13,080 bases of DNA, taken from NCBI GenBank assembly GCA_039803205.1, contig JBDRYB010000039.1, positions 1 through 13,080 on the forward strand. Direction: 5' to 3'. The stretch's first letter is position 1. Every line of letters starts with the position of its first letter. The stretch is from a candidate division WOR-3 bacterium. Its GTDB lineage: Bacteria; Hydrothermota; Hydrothermia; JBDRYB01. Positions 1 through 13,080 of the stretch are shown in pieces. The notes beneath the pieces were generated by a model that was not told the DNA's origin, searched no databases, and was given only the letters and a program-made list of their open reading frames with translations. Position numbers and translations under genes: made by a program.

Positions 1-1017
1 TCTGTAATGCTTTGAGACAAACCCGTAGTATCTCCTCCCGCAGGATGAGCATGTTATCATGCCTCTGAGAAGGTAAAGATGTTTGTCCTTTCTCCCTGAG
101 AGCCTCGCCCTGTTCTCAGAGAGCCTCTTCTGGGCAAGCTCAAAGCTCATTTCATCAACTATGCGAGGGACGCTTATGAGTATCCACTCATCTTTTGGCC
201 TTGGTTTCCTGCTGGTCTTCCTGGTCTTCCTTGACCTCTTTATGGGCCTTTTGGGTTCAACCGCCATCCTCTTCCTGAAGTAATACCTGCCTATGTAGGT
301 CTCCCTGGAGAGGATGTCCCTAATGGTGCTGGGGTCCCAGTTGCCTCCCATAGGGGCCTTTATGCCCATCTCCATGAGATTTTTGCTTATCTCCCTCAGG
401 GAGAGCCTCTCGTGAGCGTATAGCTGGAATATGAGCTTCACAATCCCAGCCTCTTCCTCGTTTATCACGAGGGTTGCCCTCTTGTTCTTTCCCCTCTCAG
501 ATAGCTCGTAGCCATATGGAGGCTTCCCTGAGGGGATGAAGCCCTCACGCGCCTTTGCGATCAGTCCCCTCAGGCACCTCTCCCTTATCTTCTCCCTCTC
601 GTATTCAGCAAACACCCCCTTCATCTGGAACAGGACCTTTGCCTCAGGGGTCTCACCGAGAGGGGTTGTGACGAACCTCAGGGAGGTTCCTGATCTCTCC
701 ATTTCCTCTTGGAGGAGGAGCTGGTGCGATAGCTTGCGGGATAGCCTGTCAGGGTCATGGATTACTGCAAGCTCAACATCAGGCCTTGATATTAGCTCCC
801 TGAACCTCGTTAAGCCAGGCCTATCAAGGGTTTCACCTGAATAGCCCTCGTCTACGCATATGTATTCCTCAGGGACACGATAACCGAGCTCAGCCGCAAG
901 CCTGAGGCACTCGGCTATCTGGGATTGGATTGAGTAGTTCTCAGCCTGCTCAGATGTTGATACCCTGGCGTATACGATGGCGATGCCTTTGGGTTGAACC
1001 TTTATCCTTTTGGTCAT
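1..1017 (-). CDS. Large serine recombinase/integrase (resolvase catalytic domain, recombinase domain and start of zinc ribbon); partial, 339 codons in window
   Basis: Hand translation from ATG at 1017 is open to the left edge: MTKRIKVQPKGIAIVYARVSTSEQ (catalytic Ser motif YARVS), VDEGYSG..LDRPGL, DPDRLSR, FAEYEREKIRERCLRG, GKPPYGY, LVINEEEAGIVKLIFQLY, WDPSTIRDILSRETYIG, VPRIVDEMSFELAQ, YLLRGMITCSSCG (CxxC zinc ribbon). It is absent from the ORF track, presumably because the stop lies outside the window. Confidence 0.96.
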   Translation of the reverse strand, partial: MTKRIKVQPKGIAIVYARVSTSEQAENYSIQSQIAECLRLAAELGYRVPEEYICVDEGYSGETLDRPGLTRFRELISRPDVELAVIHDPDRLSRKLSHQLLLQEEMERSGTSLRFVTTPLGETPEAKVLFQMKGVFAEYEREKIRERCLRGLIAKAREGFIPSGKPPYGYELSERGKNKRATLVINEEEAGIVKLIFQLYAHERLSLREISKNLMEMGIKAPMGGNWDPSTIRDILSRETYIGRYYFRKRMAVEPKRPIKRSRKTRKTSRKPRPKDEWILISVPRIVDEMSFELAQKRLSENRARLSGRKDKHLYLLRGMITCSSCGRRYYGFVSKHYR

Positions 1018-1234
1018 ATCATCAAGGGGAAATTCCAACTCTGAAGGGCATGGCTTTTCCAAGCTCTGGCTTGCAGTGCACCCTGCGTGAATTTACCCGC
1101 CTCATGTGCAAATTTTAAGGCTTCCTGCCGTGCGAGCGCAACATTTCCGAAACAAAGAAAGAGCAAAGCTTAGCTCAAGCTACGCGCAAATGATCTAGCA
1201 ATTGCTCATTAGTGGAGACCGAAAAATTATGCGA

Positions 1235-1262: not shown

Positions 1263-1494
1263 ACCGAGGGAATTACATGCTCGCGAGGGGGTTCTTTTCC
1301 AGTCTTGGTGAGGGAAAAGCCCAAAAAAGCCCTTTTCGCGGGTAACACCTGAGCTTTATCTCTCAGGAACAAATAATGGTTGCCTTGGGATAGCCTATGA
1401 CCCGCTTAGAAGGGAGTGACAACAAAGTTAAAAGACACGAGTGAGAGTTGTAATAGAGAAAAACCAAGCTGGGACCTGAAAAGCGAGAATGAGA

Positions 1495-1511
1495 TGTCAA
1501 TGATCTTGACA
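1495..1511. promoter_or_regulatory. Palindromic candidate operator TGTCAA-N5-TTGACA overlapping a -35 box
   Basis: Perfect 6-bp inverted repeat: tgtcaa tgatc ttgaca. Confidence 0.45.
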
Positions 1512-1535
1512 ACATGGGGTATAATTTGTTATGCT
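1506..1535 (+). promoter_or_regulatory. Candidate sigma70 promoter for the small rightward genes
   Basis: TTGACA (1506-1511), 18 bp, TATGCT (1530-1535), with an extended -10 TG at 1527-1528. Confidence 0.6.
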
Positions 1536-1547
1536 TTGCGCCTTTAT

Positions 1548-1721
1548 ATGAAAGAACACAGCCCAATCCTCCTCAAAGGCCTCGTGAGAACAACAGGGGC
1601 CAGGGAATACGATCTGAGGTGGAGAAGGGTTGTTCTCATACTTGAGAAGGCTACTGTGAGAAGAAAGGTAAACAGAACAAGGAGAAACAAACATGATGTG
1701 GGCTCATCCATGCAAAGATGA
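1548..1721 (+). CDS. Possible small basic hypothetical protein (57 aa, nearly leaderless)
   Basis: ATG at 1548 lies just after the candidate promoter; MKEHSPILLKGLVRTTGAREYDLRWRRVVLILEK...; host-like AGA/AGG codons. There is no SD, it overlaps the next gene, and no family is recognised. Confidence 0.3.
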   Translation: MKEHSPILLKGLVRTTGAREYDLRWRRVVLILEKATVRRKVNRTRRNKHDVGSSMQR

Positions 1722-1947
1722 TGTTGAGTTCCTCTTAGCTTGTGGGAACGGTCCTGTTCTGGTGAGATGTCTCAAGGCCTGGGCCTTGGAGAGGGGCTGG
1801 AGCAGGACAAAGTTCTACAGGAAGCTGGCCAGGCTCAGGAAATACGGGTGGATAATCCAGAAAGAGGCAGTGGTTTGGGTCAGCAAATTGGGAATGAAGG
1901 TCATCAGGGCTTGGGAAAAAGCGAGAACCAACAAATTGGGTTCTTAA
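1693..1947 (+). CDS. Small winged helix-turn-helix DNA-binding protein (84 aa)
   Basis: SD AAGGAG at 1679-1684. RGWSRTKFYRKLARLRKYGWIIQKEAVVWVSKLGMKVIRAW fits the recognition helix, LxxxGxI, wing and T/SxxG pattern of MarR/ArsR-like wHTH domains. Confidence 0.72.
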   Translation: MMWAHPCKDDVEFLLACGNGPVLVRCLKAWALERGWSRTKFYRKLARLRKYGWIIQKEAVVWVSKLGMKVIRAWEKARTNKLGS

Positions 1948-2033
1948 GGAGTCTATCTGAGGAGGATAGCGCCCTCACCTGACACATTTCACACCCCCAC
2001 ATATTGAAGATTTGGCCAGCGTTTCCTCGTAAG

Positions 2034-2050
2034 CCCTTGTGGCACAAGGG
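2034..2050. repeat. 17-bp palindrome CCCTTGTG-G-CACAAGGG
   Basis: Perfect 8-bp arms around one central base, between the convergent wHTH and transposase-remnant ORFs. Confidence 0.75.
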
Positions 2051-2059
2051 GATCGCAAT

Positions 2060-2494
2060 CTATCCAGGTCTTCTGAGAGTAAGGGTTATATAGCCTCTCA
2101 GAAACTCTCTAACCAGGGGGTCATCCTGGGAGAGGAGTCCCTTAACGAGGGCATATAGGCCTCTGAGAAATGCAAGGAGCCAGGCCAACATGATAAGGGT
2201 GATGAGCCCTTTCCTGACCACAGGGTCTCTTATCCTCCTCAGAACCTCCCTCATTCCAAAGAGCCCTTTCGGGTCCCTGAAGAGATGCTCTATCCTCATC
2301 CTCTTCTTGTAGGCCTTTAAAGGATCGTTTTCCTCGTAAACGGCAAAGACCAGGAGCCTCTCTTCTGTCTCTCTCAGGTATGTTGGCTCCATGAGGCAAA
2401 TGGTGTCCTCATCCCCACCGGTGAATATCCTCGCAAGCTCAGCCATTATCTCCTCCTCCATCTCAGCGAGTTTCCTCAGTTTCCTCCTCAGCAT
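2060..2494 (-). pseudogene. Truncated or internally deleted IS4-superfamily DDE transposase
   Basis: YKKRMRIEHLFRDPK matches the Y-x2-R-x3-E-x6-K (YREK) signature and is followed by the usual hydrophobic helix. At 144 aa it has no room for the N-terminal catalytic Asp region. No terminal inverted repeats were found. Confidence 0.8.
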
Positions 2495-2516
2495 CTCAAG
2501 ATTGAGGCCCTCGCGT

Positions 2517-2546
2517 TTGCAATCCCCCTTGCCCTTACTTTACTAT
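2517..2546 (+). promoter_or_regulatory. Candidate promoter of module 1
   Basis: TTGCAA, 18 bp, TACTAT, followed by SD AAAGGAGGT before the ATG at 2572. Both hexamers are identical in copy 2 while neighbouring bases differ. Confidence 0.6.
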
Positions 2547-2571
2547 TGTCTGAAACACAAAGGAGGTTGAG

Positions 2572-4278
2572 ATGAGCTACATAGCCATAACCCTGATAGC
2601 ATATCTGCCATTCCAGGCCGATACCCCAAAGGCCCCTATGCTCTGGTGGCCTGAGGCCGCGAACGGCGTGTGCGCTAACGGGGTTCACACTTCATATCAG
2701 AGGGGGAGAGGGCTGTTGGATTCCTCTTCCCTGAGGATGAAGTGGGAAACGCCCATACCTTCAGAGTATTGGTCCTATTGTTCCGGCAACACCTATGGCC
2801 CTTTGGTCTATGATATTGACATGGACGGGGTTCCAGAGGTCCTAGTAGCTTACGGGGTGCTCATACCCCGGCAGAGCCGCGGGGTTCTCCTGGTCCTGGA
2901 TGGCCAGACAGGCGCTTACGAATGGATATGGACGCACCCGAATTTTGCAATAGATAATATGACCCCCGCAATCGGATACCTGGATGATGATCCCCACCCT
3001 GAGATAGTCCTCTTTAGCCAGAACATGGAGGTAGACGATATGGATACCCTTCGAGTCTTTTGCCTTGATGGGGTAACCAGGGAGATAGAATGGCACAAGA
3101 GGATCAAGCCCAACAGTATGGGCCCGCAGGGCCGGTGCGTAGCAATAGCTGATGCGAACGCGGATGGCAAGCTGGAGATCATAATAAGCATCAAATCAAA
3201 TAATGTTCCTTCTACTTACCGGGTATTATGTCTCAGAGGAGAAGACGGTGATATCCTTTGGTGGAGGGACAGCTGCTTCAGCGATCCTCCGCTTTGCTGG
3301 GATATCAACGGGGATGGGATACCAGAGGTCGTCGCAGAGAAGGTCGACTTTGCTGGTCTCGTTGCCATATCGGGAATTGATGGCTCGGATGTGTGGTTTA
3401 GCACAGAAGACCACTTCTCCGATATGTATCCTACTCTTGCGGATGCCGATGGGGATGGCGAGTGGGAGGTTGTGACCATGGGGAACCAGCAATTTCCGGC
3501 TGGGATATTCTGGTTTGACGGAAAGACCGGCGTCCTAGAGAGGAAGTATGTCCCAGCCTGGCACTGCGTTCATTCAAAGATGGCCATCACAGGTCAGATG
3601 GACTCTGACTCTGCTCTGGAAACCATAGGTTGGATCATGCAGGTTTGGGGATCCGCTTGCGTTGATGGCCTTACAGCCCTAGAGCAGTGGGTGTATACCC
3701 TTCCTCGTCCTGACACATTTGGTTGCGGCGAGGGTGCTATGGCTGACATTGATAACGATGGCGAGAACGAAGTAATCAGTATGAATCTTCGTATGATCCC
3801 CGGCGAGGATGTGATGCGACTCAACTGTATCGGCCCCAGGGGTGAGCTTGAGTGGAAGATAGACTTTGGTAATTGTAATCCAGGAATTACTCCAGTTATT
3901 GCTGATGTTGACGCGGATGGCTGGCTTGAAATAGTCCTCGCTCCCATCTGGAGCAGTTACCCACCATATATAGATACCCCTAAAATCAGAGTCATAGACA
4001 ACGAGGGGGCTCTTTCAGTAGAGGAGGCCGTAAAACCACCCAGGCTCCCAACCATGTTGGCTTTGCCCGGAAAGCTCATCCTTACCCTGTTTGATCCCTG
4101 CCCGGTTGATCTTTCGATTTATGATTTGCCAGGAAGAAAAGTCAAACAACTCTACCAAGGCCAGCTTCCTGCTGGAACCCACGAGTTTGAGTTAACCGGT
4201 CTTGAACCAGGCGTTTATGTGGCCAGGCTCAGCTACGATGGGGTTATAACGACAAAAGCCCTTGTAGTGAGGAGGTGA
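2572..4278 (+). CDS. Gene A: secreted FG-GAP/VCBS-repeat beta-propeller protein with T9SS type A-like C-terminal sorting domain (568 aa)
   Basis: Strong SD and a short hydrophobic N-terminus. Eight DxDxDG-type repeats (DIDMDGVPE, YLDDDPHPE, DANADGKLE, DINGDGIPE, DADGDGEWE, QMDSDSALE, DIDNDGENE, DVDADGWLE). The tail LSIYDLPGRKV...LEPGVYVARL...TKALVVRR is typical of Por/T9SS CTDs. Confidence 0.92.
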   Translation: MSYIAITLIAYLPFQADTPKAPMLWWPEAANGVCANGVHTSYQRGRGLLDSSSLRMKWETPIPSEYWSYCSGNTYGPLVYDIDMDGVPEVLVAYGVLIPRQSRGVLLVLDGQTGAYEWIWTHPNFAIDNMTPAIGYLDDDPHPEIVLFSQNMEVDDMDTLRVFCLDGVTREIEWHKRIKPNSMGPQGRCVAIADANADGKLEIIISIKSNNVPSTYRVLCLRGEDGDILWWRDSCFSDPPLCWDINGDGIPEVVAEKVDFAGLVAISGIDGSDVWFSTEDHFSDMYPTLADADGDGEWEVVTMGNQQFPAGIFWFDGKTGVLERKYVPAWHCVHSKMAITGQMDSDSALETIGWIMQVWGSACVDGLTALEQWVYTLPRPDTFGCGEGAMADIDNDGENEVISMNLRMIPGEDVMRLNCIGPRGELEWKIDFGNCNPGITPVIADVDADGWLEIVLAPIWSSYPPYIDTPKIRVIDNEGALSVEEAVKPPRLPTMLALPGKLILTLFDPCPVDLSIYDLPGRKVKQLYQGQLPAGTHEFELTGLEPGVYVARLSYDGVITTKALVVRR

Positions 4279-4295
4279 TGCCTATGGAGGAATAA
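4270..4295 (+). other. Perfect SD plus micro-ORF (MPMEE* or MEE*) overlapping the stop of gene A
   Basis: AGGAGGTGA-TG-CCT-ATG-GAG-GAA-TAA; identical at 8869-8894. Confidence 0.5.
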
Positions 4296-4360
4296 GCTGA
4301 AAAGGAGAGGTGGAATGGTAAAGGGGAAGGTAAATGAAAAAACAAAAAGGAGTGAGAAAC

Positions 4361-7150
4361 ATGAACACGCTGATAACAACGCTGATAGCCGGCCTGGCCT
4401 GGTGGCCACAGGGCCGGCACGACGCGGCAAACACAGGCCGCATCTACGGGCACGGGAAGATAGTCCTTCCCAATATAGCCTGCATCCCCCTGGATCCGTA
4501 TAACAAGATATCCATAGAATCCAGATATGGCGCTACTGTTGGGGATGTGGATGGCGATGGGAAGAACGAGATCATCGTGGTGGCCGGGAACTACACTGGT
4601 TGGGTGGGCATCTACGGCCTGGAATACGATGGTAGCGTCCTGAGCATTGAAAAACACTATCAAGTGGGCCCCTATCCTAACCAGTATCAGAGAATAGATT
4701 GTGCGCCAGCGCTGGTTGAGGTTGGGAAGATGCTGGGCGAGCCTGATGGTATTCCGGACATAATATGGCACTGGGGATCAGCGGATGGCAGAACAGTGGA
4801 GGCAGCAGATTACTACGCATGGTCTTCCGGAAACCCTCCTCCCTTCTTCTGGAGACAGCCAGCTTTCACCATAGACCCCTCCTCCCCTGCCGTTGCTGAC
4901 CTGAACGGGGATCAGTGTTCCGACGCTGTTCTGGGGACATGGAAGCCTCAAAAAGGAGTAGGTCAGATCATCGCGCTAGACGGTCAAAACGGGGAGTCTC
5001 TCTGGAAGTGGGACCTTCCCTCTGAGCATCCCAATTCCTACTCCAAACCCGCTGTTGGCGATGTGGATGGCGATGGTAACCCCGAGGTTGTTTTTACCGC
5101 GGGAACAGGCGCTAAGGAACCAGGTGGCTACGAGCAAATTCGCTTTGTGGACTATCTAGGTGTCCTTGGAAACACCGGGAGTCTCTCGCCCGTGCTTCTG
5201 GCCTCCTGGACCCAGGAGAACACATGGATCGGCTGGTGTTCTGCCCCTGTCCTCGTGAACCTTGATCTGGATCCCAACCTTGAGATCGTGCTTTTCTGCT
5301 GGGAATATGCTGAATCCTCCAATAGCAAGGTCATAGCTCTTGATTACGCCAACGGCTCTCTCAGCCCCCTGTGGTCTTCAGCCTGTCCTAATAGTTCTTC
5401 ACCTCCTTATGCCTCTCCTGCTGTTGCTGACATGAACGGAGATGGTGAGCCTGATGTGGTAGTCGCGAGCATGGATGGGTATGTGTGTTGCTTTAGCCGC
5501 GATGGTGCATTACTTTGGTCTGTTCAACCGCCTTACGCAGAGGCTTTTGAAGCCTCACCAGCGATAGCCGATCTTGACGGGGATCCCTCTGATCTTGAGG
5601 TAGTGGTGGCAAGCAGTAACGGTTGGGTGTATATCCTCCATGGTGCCAACGGTGGGGTCTTTTGGTCTCATCAGCTTTCTTCTGATGAGTATATCACCGC
5701 CTCACCGACCATAGCTGACTGCGACGGGGATGGATGGCTGGAGATCGTTGTGTGCGGTTACTCCGGCCGAGTTTATGTTATAGACGGCAGTCCCCTCTTT
5801 GCTGAGGAACCCGCCTGGGCTATGGTTCCGAACACTAGCCTGGTTCCTTCGCCTGATCCCAGCTGGAAGGCCCGTTTCTATGACGCCTCGGTCATGCCCC
5901 CTGACAGGGCAATAGATAGGGACTTCGGCATAGACCCGAACCTTGTCTCGGACACGATGGTGGCCGTGGGGGAGTTTGGCTTCACTACCTGGCCTATACC
6001 TCCTTTTTCTTACTATTCCCATGACGGTGGAATGAGCTGGTTTTTCTCATCTCTGATTGATCCTTATCCAATTGATGGCCTCCGATACTTTGCCGATGAA
6101 TACCATCTATATGGTGTTCATCTGACCAAGTATGCTCCGGGTCTCTCACCTCGGATAAACGGCGTTGCCGTGGGTTGGGCAGTTGTGAAAGAACTCCCAC
6201 AGCCACCCTACATTGGATATGGCTGTATTCTGATAACCACAGACGGAGGCAAGACCTGGCAGGATGAGACAGGAGACCTCCTGGGAGTATCCAATTATCT
6301 CCATCTGCCTGAGGCTCCCCTCACTGACGCTGTTATTGTCACCGATGGCCACGATCACAAGACATGGATAGTTGGGCTTTCTGGCCAGGTATATACCGGG
6401 AGCCTGACCAACAATGGCCTGAAACAGGTAAATCCTCCTCCTCAGTGTCCAGGAGGCAAGGCACCGCTTCCCGATCTCTACGGAGTCCACGCCTATTACC
6501 CTTATCCTGGGAGCGTCCAGAACTTCATCTGGGTTGCTGGCAAATGCTGGGACAGAGGCTACATAGACTGGGGCTATTACAACGAGAGCAATGGCCAGAT
6601 GGCTTGGGGCACCCCCCCATGCTGTCATGAGACCACAGAGGCCTTCTACGACGCCATATACGACCAGTGGGCTCAGGGGGCTCAGATACCATCTTTGCCC
6701 GGGTATTGTGGCTCATTCAACGAGGCCGGAATAACGGACTCGGTTTTCGCGGTAGGGATGTCAAAGAAAATAACGCCCGTCAGACCTTATGCCCTCATCT
6801 GGGGAACAACGGACAGGATGAAGAGCTACGAGCTGGAGGATTACCAGGCCAACCGCTCCTTCTACGACATATCCACCCTTGAATACCCTGCTTTGAGGCG
6901 CTATGTCTTTGGTGAGGGGCCCATAAGATACTGGGATTATAACTTCACGAAGGAGGACTGGCTTTTGCCGGATGAGTATGAGGATCCTGATGTGGATAGG
7001 ATAGCCATAAAGAACGACAATGACCCCAACCCTCCGGGCAGAATATTATATGGCTGTGCTGATAATTATCCCCTCGCAGTTGGAGAAATGAATAATCTTC
7101 CTTGCATTTGGATAAAAAAATACATCCCCCCAGAAGAGGCAAAAAGGTAA
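4361..7150 (+). CDS. Gene B: FG-GAP propeller plus Asp-box (BNR-like) propeller protein (929 aa) with no T9SS tail
   Basis: Start placed at 4361 (SD AAGGAG at 4347-4352; the ATG at 4334 is not conserved in copy 2). WWPQGRHDAANTG N-terminal strand, eight DxDGDG-type repeats up to about 5790, and Asp-boxes YYSHDGGMSW and ITTDGGKTW. It ends 5 bp before the start of unit 2. Confidence 0.9.
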   Translation: MNTLITTLIAGLAWWPQGRHDAANTGRIYGHGKIVLPNIACIPLDPYNKISIESRYGATVGDVDGDGKNEIIVVAGNYTGWVGIYGLEYDGSVLSIEKHYQVGPYPNQYQRIDCAPALVEVGKMLGEPDGIPDIIWHWGSADGRTVEAADYYAWSSGNPPPFFWRQPAFTIDPSSPAVADLNGDQCSDAVLGTWKPQKGVGQIIALDGQNGESLWKWDLPSEHPNSYSKPAVGDVDGDGNPEVVFTAGTGAKEPGGYEQIRFVDYLGVLGNTGSLSPVLLASWTQENTWIGWCSAPVLVNLDLDPNLEIVLFCWEYAESSNSKVIALDYANGSLSPLWSSACPNSSSPPYASPAVADMNGDGEPDVVVASMDGYVCCFSRDGALLWSVQPPYAEAFEASPAIADLDGDPSDLEVVVASSNGWVYILHGANGGVFWSHQLSSDEYITASPTIADCDGDGWLEIVVCGYSGRVYVIDGSPLFAEEPAWAMVPNTSLVPSPDPSWKARFYDASVMPPDRAIDRDFGIDPNLVSDTMVAVGEFGFTTWPIPPFSYYSHDGGMSWFFSSLIDPYPIDGLRYFADEYHLYGVHLTKYAPGLSPRINGVAVGWAVVKELPQPPYIGYGCILITTDGGKTWQDETGDLLGVSNYLHLPEAPLTDAVIVTDGHDHKTWIVGLSGQVYTGSLTNNGLKQVNPPPQCPGGKAPLPDLYGVHAYYPYPGSVQNFIWVAGKCWDRGYIDWGYYNESNGQMAWGTPPCCHETTEAFYDAIYDQWAQGAQIPSLPGYCGSFNEAGITDSVFAVGMSKKITPVRPYALIWGTTDRMKSYELEDYQANRSFYDISTLEYPALRRYVFGEGPIRYWDYNFTKEDWLLPDEYEDPDVDRIAIKNDNDPNPPGRILYGCADNYPLAVGEMNNLPCIWIKKYIPPEEAKR
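6847..6958 (+). repeat. 112-bp near-identical block shared with 11503-11614
   Basis: By hand count there are 4 mismatches, all synonymous. Both copies encode ANRSFYDISTLEYPALRRYVFGEGPIRYWDYNFTKED. Confidence 0.92.
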
Positions 7151-7163
7151 GTCCTCCTCGCGT

Positions 7164-7193
7164 TTGCAATCCCCCCTGCCCTTGCTTTACTAT
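7164..7193 (+). promoter_or_regulatory. Candidate promoter of module 2
   Basis: TTGCAA, 18 bp, TACTAT, as at 2517-2546. Confidence 0.6.
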
Positions 7194-7218
7194 TGCCGGG
7201 GACACAAAGGAGGTTGAG

Positions 7219-8877
7219 ATGAGCTACATAGCCATAACCCTGATAGCATATCTGCCATTCCAGGCTGATACCCCAAAGGCCCCTATGCTCTGGTGGCCTG
7301 AGGCCGCAAACGGCGTCTGCGCGAATGGGGTTCATACTTCATATCAGAGGGGGGTGGGACTACTGGATTCGGAGTCGGTGATGATAAGGTGGGAAGCGGA
7401 ACTGCCGGACACATCCATCAGCACTCCTTACTTAGGCTCGGTCGTTTATGATGTTGACCTAGACGGGGTTCCGGAGGTCCTAGTAACCTACCAGGGCGCT
7501 ACCGGTTCCAAGCTCGTGGTCATGGATGGCCCCAGTGGAATGATTGAATGGGTCTGGACATGTCCCAATCTCACATTAGATCGTCACGCTCCCTCTGTTG
7601 GTGATGTTGATCTTGATGGCCATCCTGAGATAGTCATGAGGAGCGGAAATGTGAGCCTTACTGATTCTACCCGTGTTATCTGCTTAGATGGTGTAACCAG
7701 GGAGGTTAAATGGAACAAAGTAATACTTCCCCCTGCCCCTGGCGGGGCGCCTAACATATCCTCTCCCACCATAGCAAACCTGAACTGGGACCCATATTTG
7801 GAGATTGTGGTCACAGGCCTCATAGAGGGCTTTGATTTCGCGATGTTCTGTCTCAGTGGCAAGGATGGTTCTATCCTCTGGAGGAGAGATAGCGTAAGAA
7901 CACGACTAGCCGCGTGCTGGGATGTTAACGGTGACGGGATAACTGAGGTAATTGCGTCCCACATCCCGGATTATCACCTCATAGCCCTTTCAGGCCTTGA
8001 TGGTTCAATGGTTTGGCATAACACCGAGACCAATGTCTATGCCGGAAACGATGGGCCAACCATTGCTGATGCTGACGGGGATGGTGAATGGGAGATTATT
8101 GTTTACGGAGATTACGGAAGCTATGGGTATAACGAGGCCATCTTCTGGTTTGACGGCAAGACGGGGGCCCTGGAAAGGATGTATCTTCCCAACAAACACT
8201 GTTGGGATTCTGGCATACCCATCACAGGCCAACTGGATAGCGACCCCGCGCTGGAGTCCGTAGCCTGGTTTCCCAAAACCAAATCCGCTATATGCGTTGA
8301 CGGAGCATCTGCGGGAGAACAGTGGGAGTTCTCCTTTTCTAACTCAGCTCTTTTTAAGGGGGCCGTGGCTGACATGGATGACGACGGCGAAAACGAAGTT
8401 GTTCTCTTTTCATGGGAAGAGAACTATCTGCTTTGTCTTTCTAGAACGGGAGAAAAGAAATGGGGAATGGATTTTTCATATCTGAATTACCACGTAACAA
8501 TAAGGCCCATTGTTGCCGATGTTGACGGAGATGGTTATCTTGAGATAATTCTAACCCCAGCCGAGGGCCAAGGATCCCTGAGGGTCCGTTGCATAGACAA
8601 CGAGCGTGCTCTTCCGGCAAAGGAGGAAGAGAAAACCTTGAGGCCTCCAACCATGCTGGCCTTACCTGGAAGGCTCATCCTGACCCTACTTGATCCCTGC
8701 CCGGTTGATCTTTCGATTTATGACCTTGCTGGTAGAAAGATTGGGGAGCTCTATAAAGGCCAGCTTCCTGCCGGAACCTACGAGTTTGAGTTAACCGGTC
8801 TTGAACCTGGCGTTTATGTAGCCAGGCTCAGCTACGATGGTGTGATGATAACAAAGGCTGTTGTGATGAGGAGGTGA
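7219..8877 (+). CDS. Gene C: paralogue of A; FG-GAP propeller with T9SS-type CTD (552 aa)
   Basis: True start is 7219 (SD AAAGGAGGT; first 45 aa identical to A), not 7102. Eight repeats from DVDLDGVPE to DVDGDGYLE. Tail LSIYDLAGRKI...LEPGVYVARL...TKAVVMRR. Confidence 0.92.
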   Translation: MSYIAITLIAYLPFQADTPKAPMLWWPEAANGVCANGVHTSYQRGVGLLDSESVMIRWEAELPDTSISTPYLGSVVYDVDLDGVPEVLVTYQGATGSKLVVMDGPSGMIEWVWTCPNLTLDRHAPSVGDVDLDGHPEIVMRSGNVSLTDSTRVICLDGVTREVKWNKVILPPAPGGAPNISSPTIANLNWDPYLEIVVTGLIEGFDFAMFCLSGKDGSILWRRDSVRTRLAACWDVNGDGITEVIASHIPDYHLIALSGLDGSMVWHNTETNVYAGNDGPTIADADGDGEWEIIVYGDYGSYGYNEAIFWFDGKTGALERMYLPNKHCWDSGIPITGQLDSDPALESVAWFPKTKSAICVDGASAGEQWEFSFSNSALFKGAVADMDDDGENEVVLFSWEENYLLCLSRTGEKKWGMDFSYLNYHVTIRPIVADVDGDGYLEIILTPAEGQGSLRVRCIDNERALPAKEEEKTLRPPTMLALPGRLILTLLDPCPVDLSIYDLAGRKIGELYKGQLPAGTYEFELTGLEPGVYVARLSYDGVMITKAVVMRR

Positions 8878-8953
8878 TGCCTATGGAGGAATAAGCCGAA
8901 AAGGAGAGGTGGAATGGTAAAAGGGAAGGTAAAGGAAAAAAGGAGTGAGAAAC

Positions 8954-11900
8954 ATGAACACGCTGATAACAACGCTGATAGCCGGCCTGGCCTGGTGGCC
9001 ACAGGGCCGGCACACAGCAGCCAACATAGGCCGGATATACGGCCACGGCCTGTTTCAGTACGAGAAGTCATCTCCACAGATTTTCAGCTATGATAACCCC
9101 AATGGCTACGCGGTCCAGATGCGCTACGGCCCTGTTGTTGGGGATATAGATGGGGATGGCAAGAATGAGATCGTTGTTGTTTGGGGAACATCTGAGGCCA
9201 CGGGATATGGGGAGATAGGGTGCTATGAGTTTAGCGGTATCGGGATCAGTCCAGATCCGGCCCATCCAAAATGGCCAATAAACCCACCGTATCCTCAGCG
9301 CGTTGAGCTCGCGCCAGCGCTCGTTGATGTGGGAGCATATGAGGACCCCGGACCTGATAACATCCCTGATGTCATCTGGCATTGGGGAAGCGAAGGGAAA
9401 GTAGAGGCACTTGATTTTGAGCCGGCCCCCAATCCTGAACCCCTCTGGTCCCGCCAGCTCTTTTCCGGCGGCACCCCTAACACCAGACCCACATCCCCAA
9501 CCGTCGCTGATCTCACCGGTGAGGGAATAGCAGATGTGGTGATAGGTTCAACGAGACCACCCGGAGTTGCAACCCTGTATTGCATAAACGGAGCAGGTGG
9601 AACCGTTAGCTGGACCTTCGCGTGCGACAGCCCTTCACTCACTCACTCCAAGCCAGCTGTTGGTGATGTGGATGGAGACGGAGACCCAGAGGTAATCTTT
9701 ACGGCTATCTATAATGAGCATCCCAGATACCCGGAGTTGCGCGTTTTCGTCCTTGAGCACACTGGAGCCCTGTTGTCTACTGCTGTTATCCCTCTCTATA
9801 ACGATTATTCCCAACATGTTCAACTTACAAACTACCCCGCACCCCTTCTCTGTAACCTTGATGCTGACCCTGAGCTTGAGATAGTGATATACCAGCAGGT
9901 TAAAATAGGGCCCAATATAAACCATATCTGGCCGTGCCGTAATGACCTCATAGCGTTTGAGCCCAACCTCACTCAGAAGTGGATATACTCCGTGGATTTC
10001 ACCCTTAGCACCCCGGATCTCTATGGAGATGTTTTTGCATCCCCAGCGGCAGCTGATCTTCAAGGAAATGATGGGAGTTCTGAGATCGTGATCGTAGATC
10101 AGATAGGGCGCATTCACCTTATAGACGGAGGCTCTGGCGCTGGGATCTGGGTATCGGCACCCTCCAATCAACTAATGATACAAGCCTCTCCAGTTATAGC
10201 TGATCTTGACGGTGATCCTGCTGACCTTGAGGTTCTCGTCATAACCATGGGTGGAGCGCTGAGTATCCTGGATGGTAATACTGGCAGTGAAGTGTGGAAT
10301 ACCACTGGTTTAATGCCAGCTTGGCCCTGCGCTTCTTCTCCAACCGTAGCTGACTGCGACGGGAACGGCACCTTGGAGATAGTGGTTTGCACCAACGATC
10401 TCGCCACCGGAGGGGGCAAACTCTATGTTATCCGGGGTTCTGAGTTCCCTGAGCCGTTCTGGTCAATGGTCCCCATTACCAACTATAACCCTCAGCCTCT
10501 ATCCTCCTGGAACGCCCGTTTCTACGATGCTTCAGTTATGCCCCCATCCAAGGCGGTTGATCACGAGTATGGAATAGACCCGAACCTGAGATCAAACCTT
10601 ATAGCTGCTGTCGGGATGTCCGATGTGGACTTCATGGGGACGGGCATAATGTCATTCGCGTATTACTCAACTGATGGAGGAAACGCATGGAACGGCGCGC
10701 CAGTAACCCGTAACTGGCCCATATTATTGCTTCCGAGTCTGAGAGCCGTTCGTTATATCCTTCACGGCGTCCACCTGATGTCCGCTTCGGCCGCAGAACC
10801 CCCAACTCCAAACGGCGTTGCAGTGGGCTATGCTTTTGCTCCTTATGCAGGAGGAGGTTTCTGGTATGGCTGTATCCTCGTGACCATTGACGGCGGAATG
10901 AGCTGGGAGGATTGGACAGGGGATCTTTTGGGGGTGTCGGCTCCTCGCGCGCTTCCAATAGCCCCTCTTCGTGATTGCATCATTGTCACCAACGGAGGAG
11001 ACCACAGGACATGGATAGTTGGGGATCAAGGCCAGGTGCTTACAGGGCAGTTGACCACAGGTGGATTAGCTTATACCACGCCCCCCTCTCTGCAGGCTCC
11101 GCCGAACAAGGTGCATCTCTATGGGGTTTATGCTTATTACCCTTATCCTGACCCTGTTAAGGGTTTCATCTGGGTCGCTGGAAAATATGAAAAGTGGGGT
11201 GGACCAAAAGGAGGCTACATCAATTGGGGCTACCAGAGAGGCCCAAACACCGTGGAATGGGGTATCCCTTATCTAAACTGGAGTCCAAATGCGGCCTTCT
11301 TTGACGCCATATATGACCTTTGGACTCAGGGCGCCCAGATGCCATCATTGCCTGGGTATTGTGGCTCATTTAAGGAGGCCGGAATAACAGACTCCATATT
11401 TGTTGTTGGTAGGGATGTAGCTCAGGATGGAGTGACCTATCCCTTGGGCCTCATCTGGGGAACCACGGATAAAAGAAAAACCTCAGAACTACAAGTTTAC
11501 CGGGCCAACCGCTCCTTCTACGACATCTCCACCCTTGAATACCCTGCCCTGAGGCGCTATGTCTTTGGTGAGGGGCCCATAAGATACTGGGACTATAACT
11601 TCACGAAGGAGGACCTGCTGCTGCCAGATGAGACTCTGGGAGACGACGGGATAGCCATAAAGAATGACTTTGAAGTAGGGCCAGTGCCTCCGGACAGGGT
11701 TCTCTATGGCTCCGCGGATAACGCTGGGATAGCTGTGGGACGAATGTCCATGAGCAACCTCCCGACCATCTGGAAAAAGGGCTCCTTTGAATATGTGGAG
11801 AGCGGAGAGCTCACCCCCATCCCCTTCGGCCCCCCTGAGATAACCTGGACAAGGTCTCAGAACAACGGCAGGGTTGCTTGGGTCGTCTGGAACCACAACA

Positions 11901-13080
11901 CAGAGCCAACTGTCAGGGATTACAGGATAAGGGCTTATCCCATGGGACAGGGCTCCGAGGACTGGAACTCCTTGCTCACCTTCAATGTTGAGACCTTCAT
12001 GCCCCTCCCGAATGACTCAGGCTACTGGGAAGGCGTTGGCGTAAAGGCTGTTGACTGCTGGGGAACCGAATCCCAGGCCTCTGACGACCTCGGCGACACC
12101 TCCTTGTTCTATCACCCTGGCCCCGCCGCTGTCTCGGACACCCTCGCCCTTTTCCCTTCATCAACAGAGAACCTGGTCGTGGACTACGATGGGGTCGCTC
12201 ACCTGGTTTACGCGTCCCGCTCCCTTGAGGATGGCGAGTATCACATCTATTACATCGCGAGGCCCTTTGGAGGGGCTTGGTCAGAGCCACAGGACCTCGG
12301 CCGGGGATATGCTCCAACCCTGGCTTTCTGGAATGACACGGCTGATTTCGCCAACGCTACCCTTTACCTCGCATACACCACCCACCAGGGAAAGACATCA
12401 AAGCTCATGATGAGGAAGAAGGGGCCTGGCGGCTCTTGGTCTCCAGCTAAGCAGGTTGTCATGTTCAACCCTTCAAGCCCCTACCTCGGCATGGGAGCGC
12501 CTGACATACTTGATGTTTTCCAGGGAGGCCAGACCCCTGCGTTCATGGGAGCTGGCGATCCCCCGCGCGTCTATGTGGCCCTGAAGGCCCCTATCCGCGA
12601 TGGAAAGAAGGACAGGGTCAAGGGATACGCGCTCCTGGTATTCACGATAAACCCCCAGAACATGAGCGCCCTGAGCGCAGAGACAGTGGACTCGGTCTCT
12701 GTCCCGGCCTTTGATGTCCCTGATAGACAGGCCTTTCTCTGCGGTATAGGGGGCGTTTCCTTAACTGGAATAAAGGTCCTAGACCAGTATCACCAGCACA
12801 TCGCTTGGGACACCGACGGAAACCACCTCTCTGTGCTCTGGAGAAAGAACCCCGGGCTTGGCTGGAACAGGATTGACCTATCTGGCAATCTCTACGGATA
12901 CGCCAATGAGGCAAAGGAGCCATACATAGTGGCTCTTGGAGGTTCAATATATTGCAATATTAATCCCATGATTTGCGACACATATTCCGTTGCATATCTA
13001 ACATTCTGCGGTCGCAATAACAACACCCAGCCATACTCTGTCTATCTCTCATACCTCTACACCCACCAGCCAGCTGGTTT
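8954..13080 (+). CDS. Gene D: long paralogue of B; FG-GAP propeller, Asp-box propeller, FN3-like domain and further propeller-like region; partial (at least 1375 aa)
   Basis: Hand translation from MNTLITTLIAGLAWWPQGRH is open to the right edge. Repeats run from DIDGDGKNE to DCDGNGTLE, with Asp-boxes YYSTDGGNAW and VTIDGGMSW. FN3-like VVWNHNTEPTVRDYRI...VGVKAVDCWGTES lies at about 11820-12085, followed by LVVDYDGVAHLVY...IYYIAR..GAWSEP. Not in the ORF track. Confidence 0.93.
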   Translation, partial: MNTLITTLIAGLAWWPQGRHTAANIGRIYGHGLFQYEKSSPQIFSYDNPNGYAVQMRYGPVVGDIDGDGKNEIVVVWGTSEATGYGEIGCYEFSGIGISPDPAHPKWPINPPYPQRVELAPALVDVGAYEDPGPDNIPDVIWHWGSEGKVEALDFEPAPNPEPLWSRQLFSGGTPNTRPTSPTVADLTGEGIADVVIGSTRPPGVATLYCINGAGGTVSWTFACDSPSLTHSKPAVGDVDGDGDPEVIFTAIYNEHPRYPELRVFVLEHTGALLSTAVIPLYNDYSQHVQLTNYPAPLLCNLDADPELEIVIYQQVKIGPNINHIWPCRNDLIAFEPNLTQKWIYSVDFTLSTPDLYGDVFASPAAADLQGNDGSSEIVIVDQIGRIHLIDGGSGAGIWVSAPSNQLMIQASPVIADLDGDPADLEVLVITMGGALSILDGNTGSEVWNTTGLMPAWPCASSPTVADCDGNGTLEIVVCTNDLATGGGKLYVIRGSEFPEPFWSMVPITNYNPQPLSSWNARFYDASVMPPSKAVDHEYGIDPNLRSNLIAAVGMSDVDFMGTGIMSFAYYSTDGGNAWNGAPVTRNWPILLLPSLRAVRYILHGVHLMSASAAEPPTPNGVAVGYAFAPYAGGGFWYGCILVTIDGGMSWEDWTGDLLGVSAPRALPIAPLRDCIIVTNGGDHRTWIVGDQGQVLTGQLTTGGLAYTTPPSLQAPPNKVHLYGVYAYYPYPDPVKGFIWVAGKYEKWGGPKGGYINWGYQRGPNTVEWGIPYLNWSPNAAFFDAIYDLWTQGAQMPSLPGYCGSFKEAGITDSIFVVGRDVAQDGVTYPLGLIWGTTDKRKTSELQVYRANRSFYDISTLEYPALRRYVFGEGPIRYWDYNFTKEDLLLPDETLGDDGIAIKNDFEVGPVPPDRVLYGSADNAGIAVGRMSMSNLPTIWKKGSFEYVESGELTPIPFGPPEITWTRSQNNGRVAWVVWNHNTEPTVRDYRIRAYPMGQGSEDWNSLLTFNVETFMPLPNDSGYWEGVGVKAVDCWGTESQASDDLGDTSLFYHPGPAAVSDTLALFPSSTENLVVDYDGVAHLVYASRSLEDGEYHIYYIARPFGGAWSEPQDLGRGYAPTLAFWNDTADFANATLYLAYTTHQGKTSKLMMRKKGPGGSWSPAKQVVMFNPSSPYLGMGAPDILDVFQGGQTPAFMGAGDPPRVYVALKAPIRDGKKDRVKGYALLVFTINPQNMSALSAETVDSVSVPAFDVPDRQAFLCGIGGVSLTGIKVLDQYHQHIAWDTDGNHLSVLWRKNPGLGWNRIDLSGNLYGYANEAKEPYIVALGGSIYCNINPMICDTYSVAYLTFCGRNNNTQPYSVYLSYLYTHQPAG

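Follow-up and report, generated by a model that had tools for sequence, protein, structure and literature searches.

Gene content and predicted architecture of the array

The stretch analysed here (the window) is the entire 13,080 nt contig C39 from the genome of a candidate division WOR-3 bacterium (G000; 2.3 Mb, 96% complete). Four long open reading frames (ORFs), designated A to D, are present on the plus strand, each encoding FG-GAP repeats (Pfam). Together they form tandem two-gene modules of predicted secreted beta-propeller proteins, the parts of which have, in our assessment, very probably been reshuffled by ordinary homologous recombination at four near-identical blocks. Other contigs of the G000 assembly are referred to as C2, C3, C18, C24, C29, C31, C34, C40 and C43. 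Comparisons were made with L022, a metagenome contig of a second species whose flanking core genes are approximately 71% identical in DNA to those of G000; with G002, another species of the same genus (three genus genomes were compared, 86-98% complete); and with related proteins from metagenome assemblies, given P numbers, most of which come without DNA or reads.

Gene A (2572..4278) encodes 568 amino acids (aa), comprising a short N-terminal leader, an FG-GAP beta-propeller and a type IX secretion system (T9SS) type A-like C-terminal domain (CTD). Its model shows a beta-propeller and a small C-terminal sandwich, with a predicted local distance difference test score (pLDDT) of 69, and the closest folds are BamB and PQQ-type propellers. 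The best fold matches in the PDB are 9-13% identical, with no solved or characterised close relative among the matches. Gene B (4361..7150; 929 aa) is a short internal form with no stalk and no CTD, composed of an FG-GAP propeller (approximately aa 33-476) and a YCF48/BNR-type propeller (approximately aa 495-922). Only the first of these was confidently modelled; past aa 476 the AlphaFold model has a mean pLDDT of 49 and is unusable. The second domain is nearest to the YCF48/BNR propeller cluster, with a template modelling score of 0.66 in a comparison of a predicted model with predicted models. Gene C (7219..8877; 552 aa) is a paralogue of A and possesses a CTD. Gene D (8954..13080; >1375 aa) is the long terminal form, with two propellers, a stalk and a tail, and is cut by the contig end. 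A structure-atlas search with the stalk and tail returned no match above 0.75.

The proteins are predicted to be secreted by T9SS-like export. The N-termini are short and hydrophobic by visual inspection. T9SS-tail matches on contig C39 are limited to A and C, with none in B. Full-length relatives of D (P0096, P0111 and the C18 protein) terminate in a T9SS-like tail; Por_Secre_tail is below the Pfam cut-off in the relatives of D, and the C18 tail is above the cut-off in the genome tail search. G000 has 125 T9SS-tail matches, 109 of them above the cut-off, together with matches to T9SS machinery proteins: SprA_N is above the cut-off in a 1883-aa frame, as are four of seven PorV-family matches.

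The protein family is narrow. At a threshold of E 1e-60 the A-family profile matched only G000 among 64 class genomes, and a search with the stalk of D matched 3 of 272 phylum genomes, one weakly at 28%. Nine matches were obtained from representative sequences using the second half of B, two of which are true relatives. Scans for related loci by pattern yielded none in genome contigs, none in viral contigs and none in a first metagenome scan; a second metagenome scan yielded at least two loci, one of them useful.

Near-identical blocks between the modules

The original prediction, made from the sequence alone, described three constant blocks alternating with strongly diverged DNA in two collinear modules, and proposed gene conversion or cassette exchange through them. 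All three blocks were recovered, all on the plus strand. Block 1 (2509-2706 and 7156-7353) is 93.9% identical over 198 nt. It begins with leader 1 (2509..2571), which carries the hexamers TTGCAA and TACTAT with a spacing of 18 nt (2517-2546) and an AGGAGG ribosome site, and which matches leader 2 (7146..7218, overlapping the stop codon of B) at 57 of 63 positions. A third copy of the leader, 97% identical over 68 nt, lies ahead of a related module on C18 (38772-38705). The hexamers are promoter-like. Both of them (with one change) and their 18-nt spacing are kept in L022, the remaining leader matching at only 37 of 60 positions. The leaders, with 8 of 12 consensus matches, were not listed in a consensus promoter scan of the window, which returned 10 sites against 11.1 in shuffled sequences and hence no excess. 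The coding part of block 1 (2572..2706; 45 codons) matches C at 129 of 135 positions and L022 at 116 of 135. As had been reported, the protein is identical over these codons, with exactly six synonymous changes (codons 16, 30, 33, 35, 36 and 39).

Block 2 (4048..4455 and 8647..9048; 86.3% identical) spans the CTD of A, an 82-nt spacer and the N-terminus of B, and includes the 77-nt exact match at 4344-4420/8937-9013. The CTD portion (84% protein identity) is far less homogenised than the spacer and N-terminal portion. Block 3 (6847..6958 and 11503..11614) lies close to the end of the second propeller of B, and its copies agree at 108 of 112 positions, compared with 91 of 112 to L022; the head/stalk switch points of P0002 and P0112, described below, fall just after the second copy. 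A fourth block, past the end of the region originally described, was found at 12072..12318. It comprises 82 codons common to a gene on C18 that belongs to a third, more distant module, with 245 of 247 positions identical between flanks of 45-46% identity, and 210 of 246 identical to L022. Block 4 is also the stalk/tail switch point of P0112, P0111 and a gene of G002. The four blocks are unrelated in sequence to each other. Further copies of blocks in G000 are found on C18 and C43.

Between the blocks divergence is strong, protein identity falling to 44-47% for A/C and 41-57% for B/D. Silent divergence, measured as uncorrected pS in sliding windows, is likewise far from uniform: values of 0.22 in block 1, 0.36-0.39 in the CTD, 0.33 at the start of B/D and 0.25 in block 3 compare with 0.51-0.94 elsewhere. 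At each block compared (blocks 1, 3 and 4, and the spacer within block 2), the G000 paralogues resemble one another more than they resemble L022. The intergenic spacer is the clearest case, being identical at 73 of 76 positions within G000 and at 31 of 82 to the same position in L022. Since the spacer is free to vary between species yet equal within the genome, the pattern points to copying and not to constraint on the sequence.

No exact repeat between the modules is longer than 77 nt, which falls short of the 127-nt overlaps that join contigs in this assembly; it is therefore improbable that the array was collapsed or duplicated during assembly. The last 127 nt of the window (12954..13080, + strand) also end contig C31 (C31:1-939), where they are preceded by an insertion sequence (IS), producing an assembly fork inside D. 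The IS is 98% identical to a copy on C29, and represents either an insertion in D that some members of the population carry or an assembly path wrongly joined via the IS. Contig C43 opens with the final 33 codons of an export tail of C18 type, followed by approximately 330 downstream nt nearly identical to C18 (C18:31753-32393). This stretch is a fifth shared block, and may be the missing 3' end of D.

Layout of short internal and long terminal genes

The layout consists of n repeats of leader, A-type gene, spacer and short B-type gene, followed by a leader, an A-type gene, a spacer and a long D-type gene with stalk and export tail. It was read directly in the window and in L022, that is, in two species. 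L022 starts with 72 nt that encode the short tail of P0002; then follow a leader, a gene of A type and the long gene for P0096, which carries the export tail. From the equal-sized contigs (10,064 nt, 9,654 nt coding) that encode P0094 (short), P0100 (A-type) and P0115 (long), the same order is inferred.

Because the short tail is 82% conserved between species and terminates at a propeller boundary, short B is an old and maintained form. It may serve to store a head, act in the periplasm or travel as a passenger of A. Two head types are known in both forms: one is short in P0002 and long in P0096/P0112, the other short in B/P0094 and long in G002.

Just behind the long gene of L022 (6971-7092) lie the 3' part of tRNA-Lys(TTT) and its downstream sequence, without the whole tRNA. 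In G000 a whole tRNA-Lys(TTT) is present on C2 and another fragment on C3. The L022 fragment looks like an attachment-site remnant.

Mosaic relatives and recombination tests

Segment trees of the array genes and their relatives disagree. The trees omit G002 and C18 (frameshifted) and the near-duplicates P0001, P0095, P0099, P0100, P0008, P0102 and P0114-P0118. For the quartet B, D, P0094 and P0096, informative sites in the N-terminus were 5:0:0 for (B,D), and in the first half of the BNR propeller 0:19:1 for (B,P0094), a grouping by gene type. Block 3 returned to grouping by genome (4:1:0) and the region after it to grouping by gene type (2:11:0), with a permutation p of 1e-5. Approximately unbiased (AU) tests, in which the groupings were picked after inspection of the identity matrices, rejected the end-groupings in the cores (p 5e-6 and 8e-58) and, in the CTD, the grouping seen in the cores (p 0.013).

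Chimeric alleles exist among the relatives, the evidence consisting of assembled proteins and not of sequencing reads. P0112 combines the N-terminus of B (aa 1-33, 33/33 identical) with a head 77% identical to P0096 and 46-48% to B or D; its stalk is that of D (210 of 211 residues through block 4) and is followed by the C18 tail (535/547). P0111 carries a head of 35% identity ahead of a tail that matches P0096 at 643/648 positions, the join lying at block 4, and this type occurs in six records from three sources. P0002 differs from P0096 at 17 of the first 873 aa and then continues into the short-type tail, the switch lying within aa 868-873 (approximately six codons). P0102 has the N-terminus of P0006 and the body of P0009, with sites of 0:0:8 changing to 40:0:0 across a switch window of 16 aa. 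Compared with A, P0004 is identical over 64 aa at the start, 59-71% identical in the core and 91% in the CTD; an 82-aa record from the same source matches the start of B at all but two positions. This suggests that the source of P0004 is a close strain with a replaced core. A frameshifted gene of G002 unites a B-type second propeller, a D-type stalk and a C18-type tail. Gene conversion or cassette exchange through the blocks, as originally proposed, is thus supported by non-uniform silent divergence, extra copies and chimeric alleles.

A-type cores and the head types that follow them seem to travel as pairs (P0007/P0114, P0100/P0115, A/B, P0004/P0098 and those of L022), as judged from equal-sized source contigs. 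This is a hint that paired cores and heads may be cognate partners.

Proposed mechanism and repair background

The positions of the switch points vary. In block 1 they lie at codon 46 (A compared with C), at 45-60 and at 65 (A compared with P0004), and the head/stalk join at aa 868-873 in P0002 lies approximately ten codons later in P0112. Varying switch points and mutually unrelated blocks indicate that recombination is likely to be homologous rather than site-specific. Exchange of the RecA type would start in a block, with three possible outcomes. The block may be converted between paralogues, and would hence stay usable for recombination. The propeller core between two blocks may be replaced by an allele from another locus, strain or species. 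Finally, unequal crossover or loop-out near block 3 may add or remove a whole unit, so that a head in the short, tail-less position comes to occupy the long position with its export tail, or the reverse; a junction like that of P0002 would be expected from such an event. The likely benefit would be a varying repertoire of putative surface binding domains.

These outcomes modify the earlier proposal that ligand-facing propellers are swapped between constant export signals. Swapping of propellers agrees with the mosaics, but block 3 does not serve as an export signal, given that B lacks an export tail, and the exchanged segments include stalks and tails. The terms 'ligand-facing' and 'system', the latter if it implies a dedicated or selected mechanism, are inferences.

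Homologues of recA and comEC are present in all three genus genomes, in which mutS1, mutL and nucS were not found. By comparison, mutS1 has a strong match in all 61 other genomes of the class (56 above cut-off and 5 fragments). Mismatch repair restrains recombination between diverged DNA, and loss of MutS1/MutL likely permits recombination of blocks that are 85-96% identical. The pattern extends beyond this locus: among 2130 paralogue pairs in G000 that are 30-70% identical, 50 have a common block of at least 54/60 nt. Examples also appear in a separate listing, in which many self-overlapping ORF pairs were disregarded. A motif-based split of the 2130 pairs into tail-bearing and other genes missed known tails and was too crude, and no enrichment was drawn from it.

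Alternative explanations

Several observations weigh against the interpretation proposed above. In the second of the two tail searches the T9SS-tail scores of A and C, 26 and 25.1 bits in the genome tail search (cut-off 23), were 22.4 and 21.8, just under the cut-off. The FG-GAP head quartet is unresolved (7:3:12), and for the quartet A, C, P0007 and L22A the first core half continues to support (A,C) by 8:0:2. Block 3 of P0112 is of the other species' type, with runs in common with P0096/P0094; block 3 is therefore not homogenised species-wide, and the match between B and D at this block may record a single event. Joins at block 4, which has a 152-nt exact match to C18, could be assembler misjoins, as could the join of P0102 with its 16-aa switch window. 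Regarding the repair background, dprA is present in both genus relatives and was not found in G000, and all 12 genomes of family f2 possess mutS1 without a mutL match beyond short fragments, so that loss of mutL is not unique to the genus. Finally, the long gene of C18 (C18:32291-37035) is split by a frameshift near 36268 and that of G002 is also frameshifted, which fits decay as well as turnover. The C18 frameshift is probably genuine, given that P0113, a protein from another assembly that is identical over 1315 aa, starts at the same site.

Among the alternatives, a neutral by-product survives best; we regard it as quite possible, if short of probable. Here, old duplicates in a repair-deficient genome would recombine wherever protein conservation keeps the DNA similar, and the mosaics would represent drift. 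The blocks do coincide with the most conserved protein stretches, across species too (91% and 80-85% protein identity), common blocks occur in 50 of the 2130 paralogue pairs of G000, and two of the long genes are frameshifted. As the recombination mechanism would be identical, sequence evidence separates the two explanations poorly. Against neutrality, several head types diverged by 35-50% persist with open frames, some across species (P0096/P0112 77%, B/P0094 70-73%), which is a pattern of balancing selection, and the short-internal/long-terminal layout is kept in two species.

An assembly artefact, with collapsed repeats or misjoined paths as the source of the blocks and chimeras, is highly improbable. 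The contig does end at a fork inside D and block 4 does hold 152 exact nt. Yet identity of the blocks between modules is 86-96% and no exact match among them exceeds 77 nt, the switch window of P0002 is limited to approximately six codons, the P0111 type recurs in six records from three sources, and the pairing of D stalk and C18 tail is found again in G002, another species with divergence of the 85% type. There is a very slight chance that a site-specific cassette system, shufflon- or integron-like, is driven by the adjacent large serine recombinase 1.4 kb upstream. An ORF on C43, beyond the second copy of the C18-type gene end, is presumed from sequence motifs to be tyrosine-integrase-like and would also suit such a system; the varying switch points and four unrelated blocks would not, and G002 has the gene with only a 37-aa recombinase remnant. 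Slighter still is the chance of a single old duplication under purifying selection on block nucleotide sequence (promoter, ribosome site or RNA structure): the leader in block 1 is promoter-like and translation starts fall within both N-terminal blocks, but the spacer is conserved within the genome and not to L022, blocks 3 and 4 are mid-gene, and chimeras exist.

Reshuffling through the blocks by homologous recombination is well supported, and an adaptive value is plausible. In the array there is evidence at base level, switch points included, that an uncultured lineage diversifies its predicted surface proteins by constant-block recombination of the type known from host-adapted pathogens; this lineage has approximately 125 genes for T9SS-like cargo and lacks MutS1/MutL. 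The short-internal/long-terminal layout predicts that heads change display status by junction switching. Should the process be only neutral, the array remains a clear warning that such loci break or are misjoined in metagenome-assembled genomes.

Relation to known systems

Silent-cassette variation of the vlsE/pilE type uses promoterless partial donor cassettes and one expression site. It was rejected here, each module having a leader, ribosome site, start codon and open frame. Shufflons and integrons rely on one repeated recombination site with a fixed crossover point, and were rejected on account of the varying switch points and unrelated blocks. Diversity-generating retroelements combine a reverse transcriptase with a template/variable repeat pair; no reverse transcriptase was detected among the six window proteins, to which the Pfam scan was limited, and the sequence differences include indels.

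The closest likeness is to Helicobacter pylori, in which paralogous surface-protein genes at several loci (babA/babB/babC, sabA/sabB/hopQ and homA/homB) have ends more alike within than between strains, and chimeric genes arise by intragenomic recombination that is probably RecA-dependent (PMC3960876). The array resembles babA/babB in that segments are more alike among paralogues within a genome than across species, and in that chimeric alleles change parent in the common segments (P0112, P0111, P0002 and P0102). It differs in its two-gene unit, four blocks (two of them mid-gene), tandem arrangement, internal genes without export tail and predicted T9SS-like export. The original prediction did not recognise the array as a described system; the process is of the kind already described as concerted evolution of babA/babB (PMC3960876).

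In Porphyromonas gingivalis, T9SS cargo such as the gingipain adhesin domains undergoes domain rearrangement and allelic exchange, producing a mosaic unrelated to the genome tree, for which negative frequency-dependent selection has been proposed (PMC5266723). The likeness lies in mosaic surface proteins with known or, in the array, predicted T9SS export. The cargo in that case consists of proteases and adhesin folds, and the accessible portion of the same paper describes no two-gene tandem unit and no short-internal/long-terminal layout (PMC5266723).

The Rhs orphan modules of Salmonella are partial genes beside the main gene; recombination fuses them to the delivery part and so brings them into use (PMC3967940). 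The array is a mirror image of these, the variable part being N-terminal and upstream and the export part C-terminal and last. Unlike Rhs orphans, the short B genes retain a start and a ribosome site, with a leader upstream. An Rhs or contact-dependent inhibition (CDI) orphan system as such was rejected: variability is at the N-terminus, nothing resembling a small immunity gene lies between the modules, and no toxin family appeared in profile scans. A mirror-image orphan system can be put forward tentatively, and we consider it rather improbable. Tail-less heads would be stored upstream, and loop-out or unequal crossover near block 3 would promote one of them onto the single stalk-plus-T9SS tail; a mismatch-repair-deficient host would thus switch display, with head, stalk and tail combined from a cross-species pool.

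Repeat motifs and predicted fold are held in common with VCBS/FG-GAP and YCF48/BNR propellers (Pfam PF13517, PF01839 and PF14870; PMC8023676). No description of propeller arrays from WOR-3 was found in the literature searched, a search that did not extend to subscription papers and supplements.

Features neighbouring the array

A large serine recombinase (1..1062, - strand), cut by the contig end, has Resolvase, Recombinase and zinc ribbon domains in Pfam. It is present as a single copy in G000, and one of the two genus relatives retains a 37-aa remnant. The remnant of an IS4-like transposase (1975..2512, - strand; NCBIfam and Pfam matches below cut-off) abuts the first leader, and copies 90-95% identical are present on C2, C24, C3 and C34.

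Between these two features, 489 nt of the window (1485-1973) are 97.8% identical to the start of C40 and contain two small ORFs and a strong promoter-like site (1506-1535). Contig C40 holds another array of tail-bearing genes with common 3' ends. The end of a long ORF in this array (C40:5627-9675) repeats the sequence upstream of the first C40 gene, which suggests duplicated leader DNA within the C40 array.

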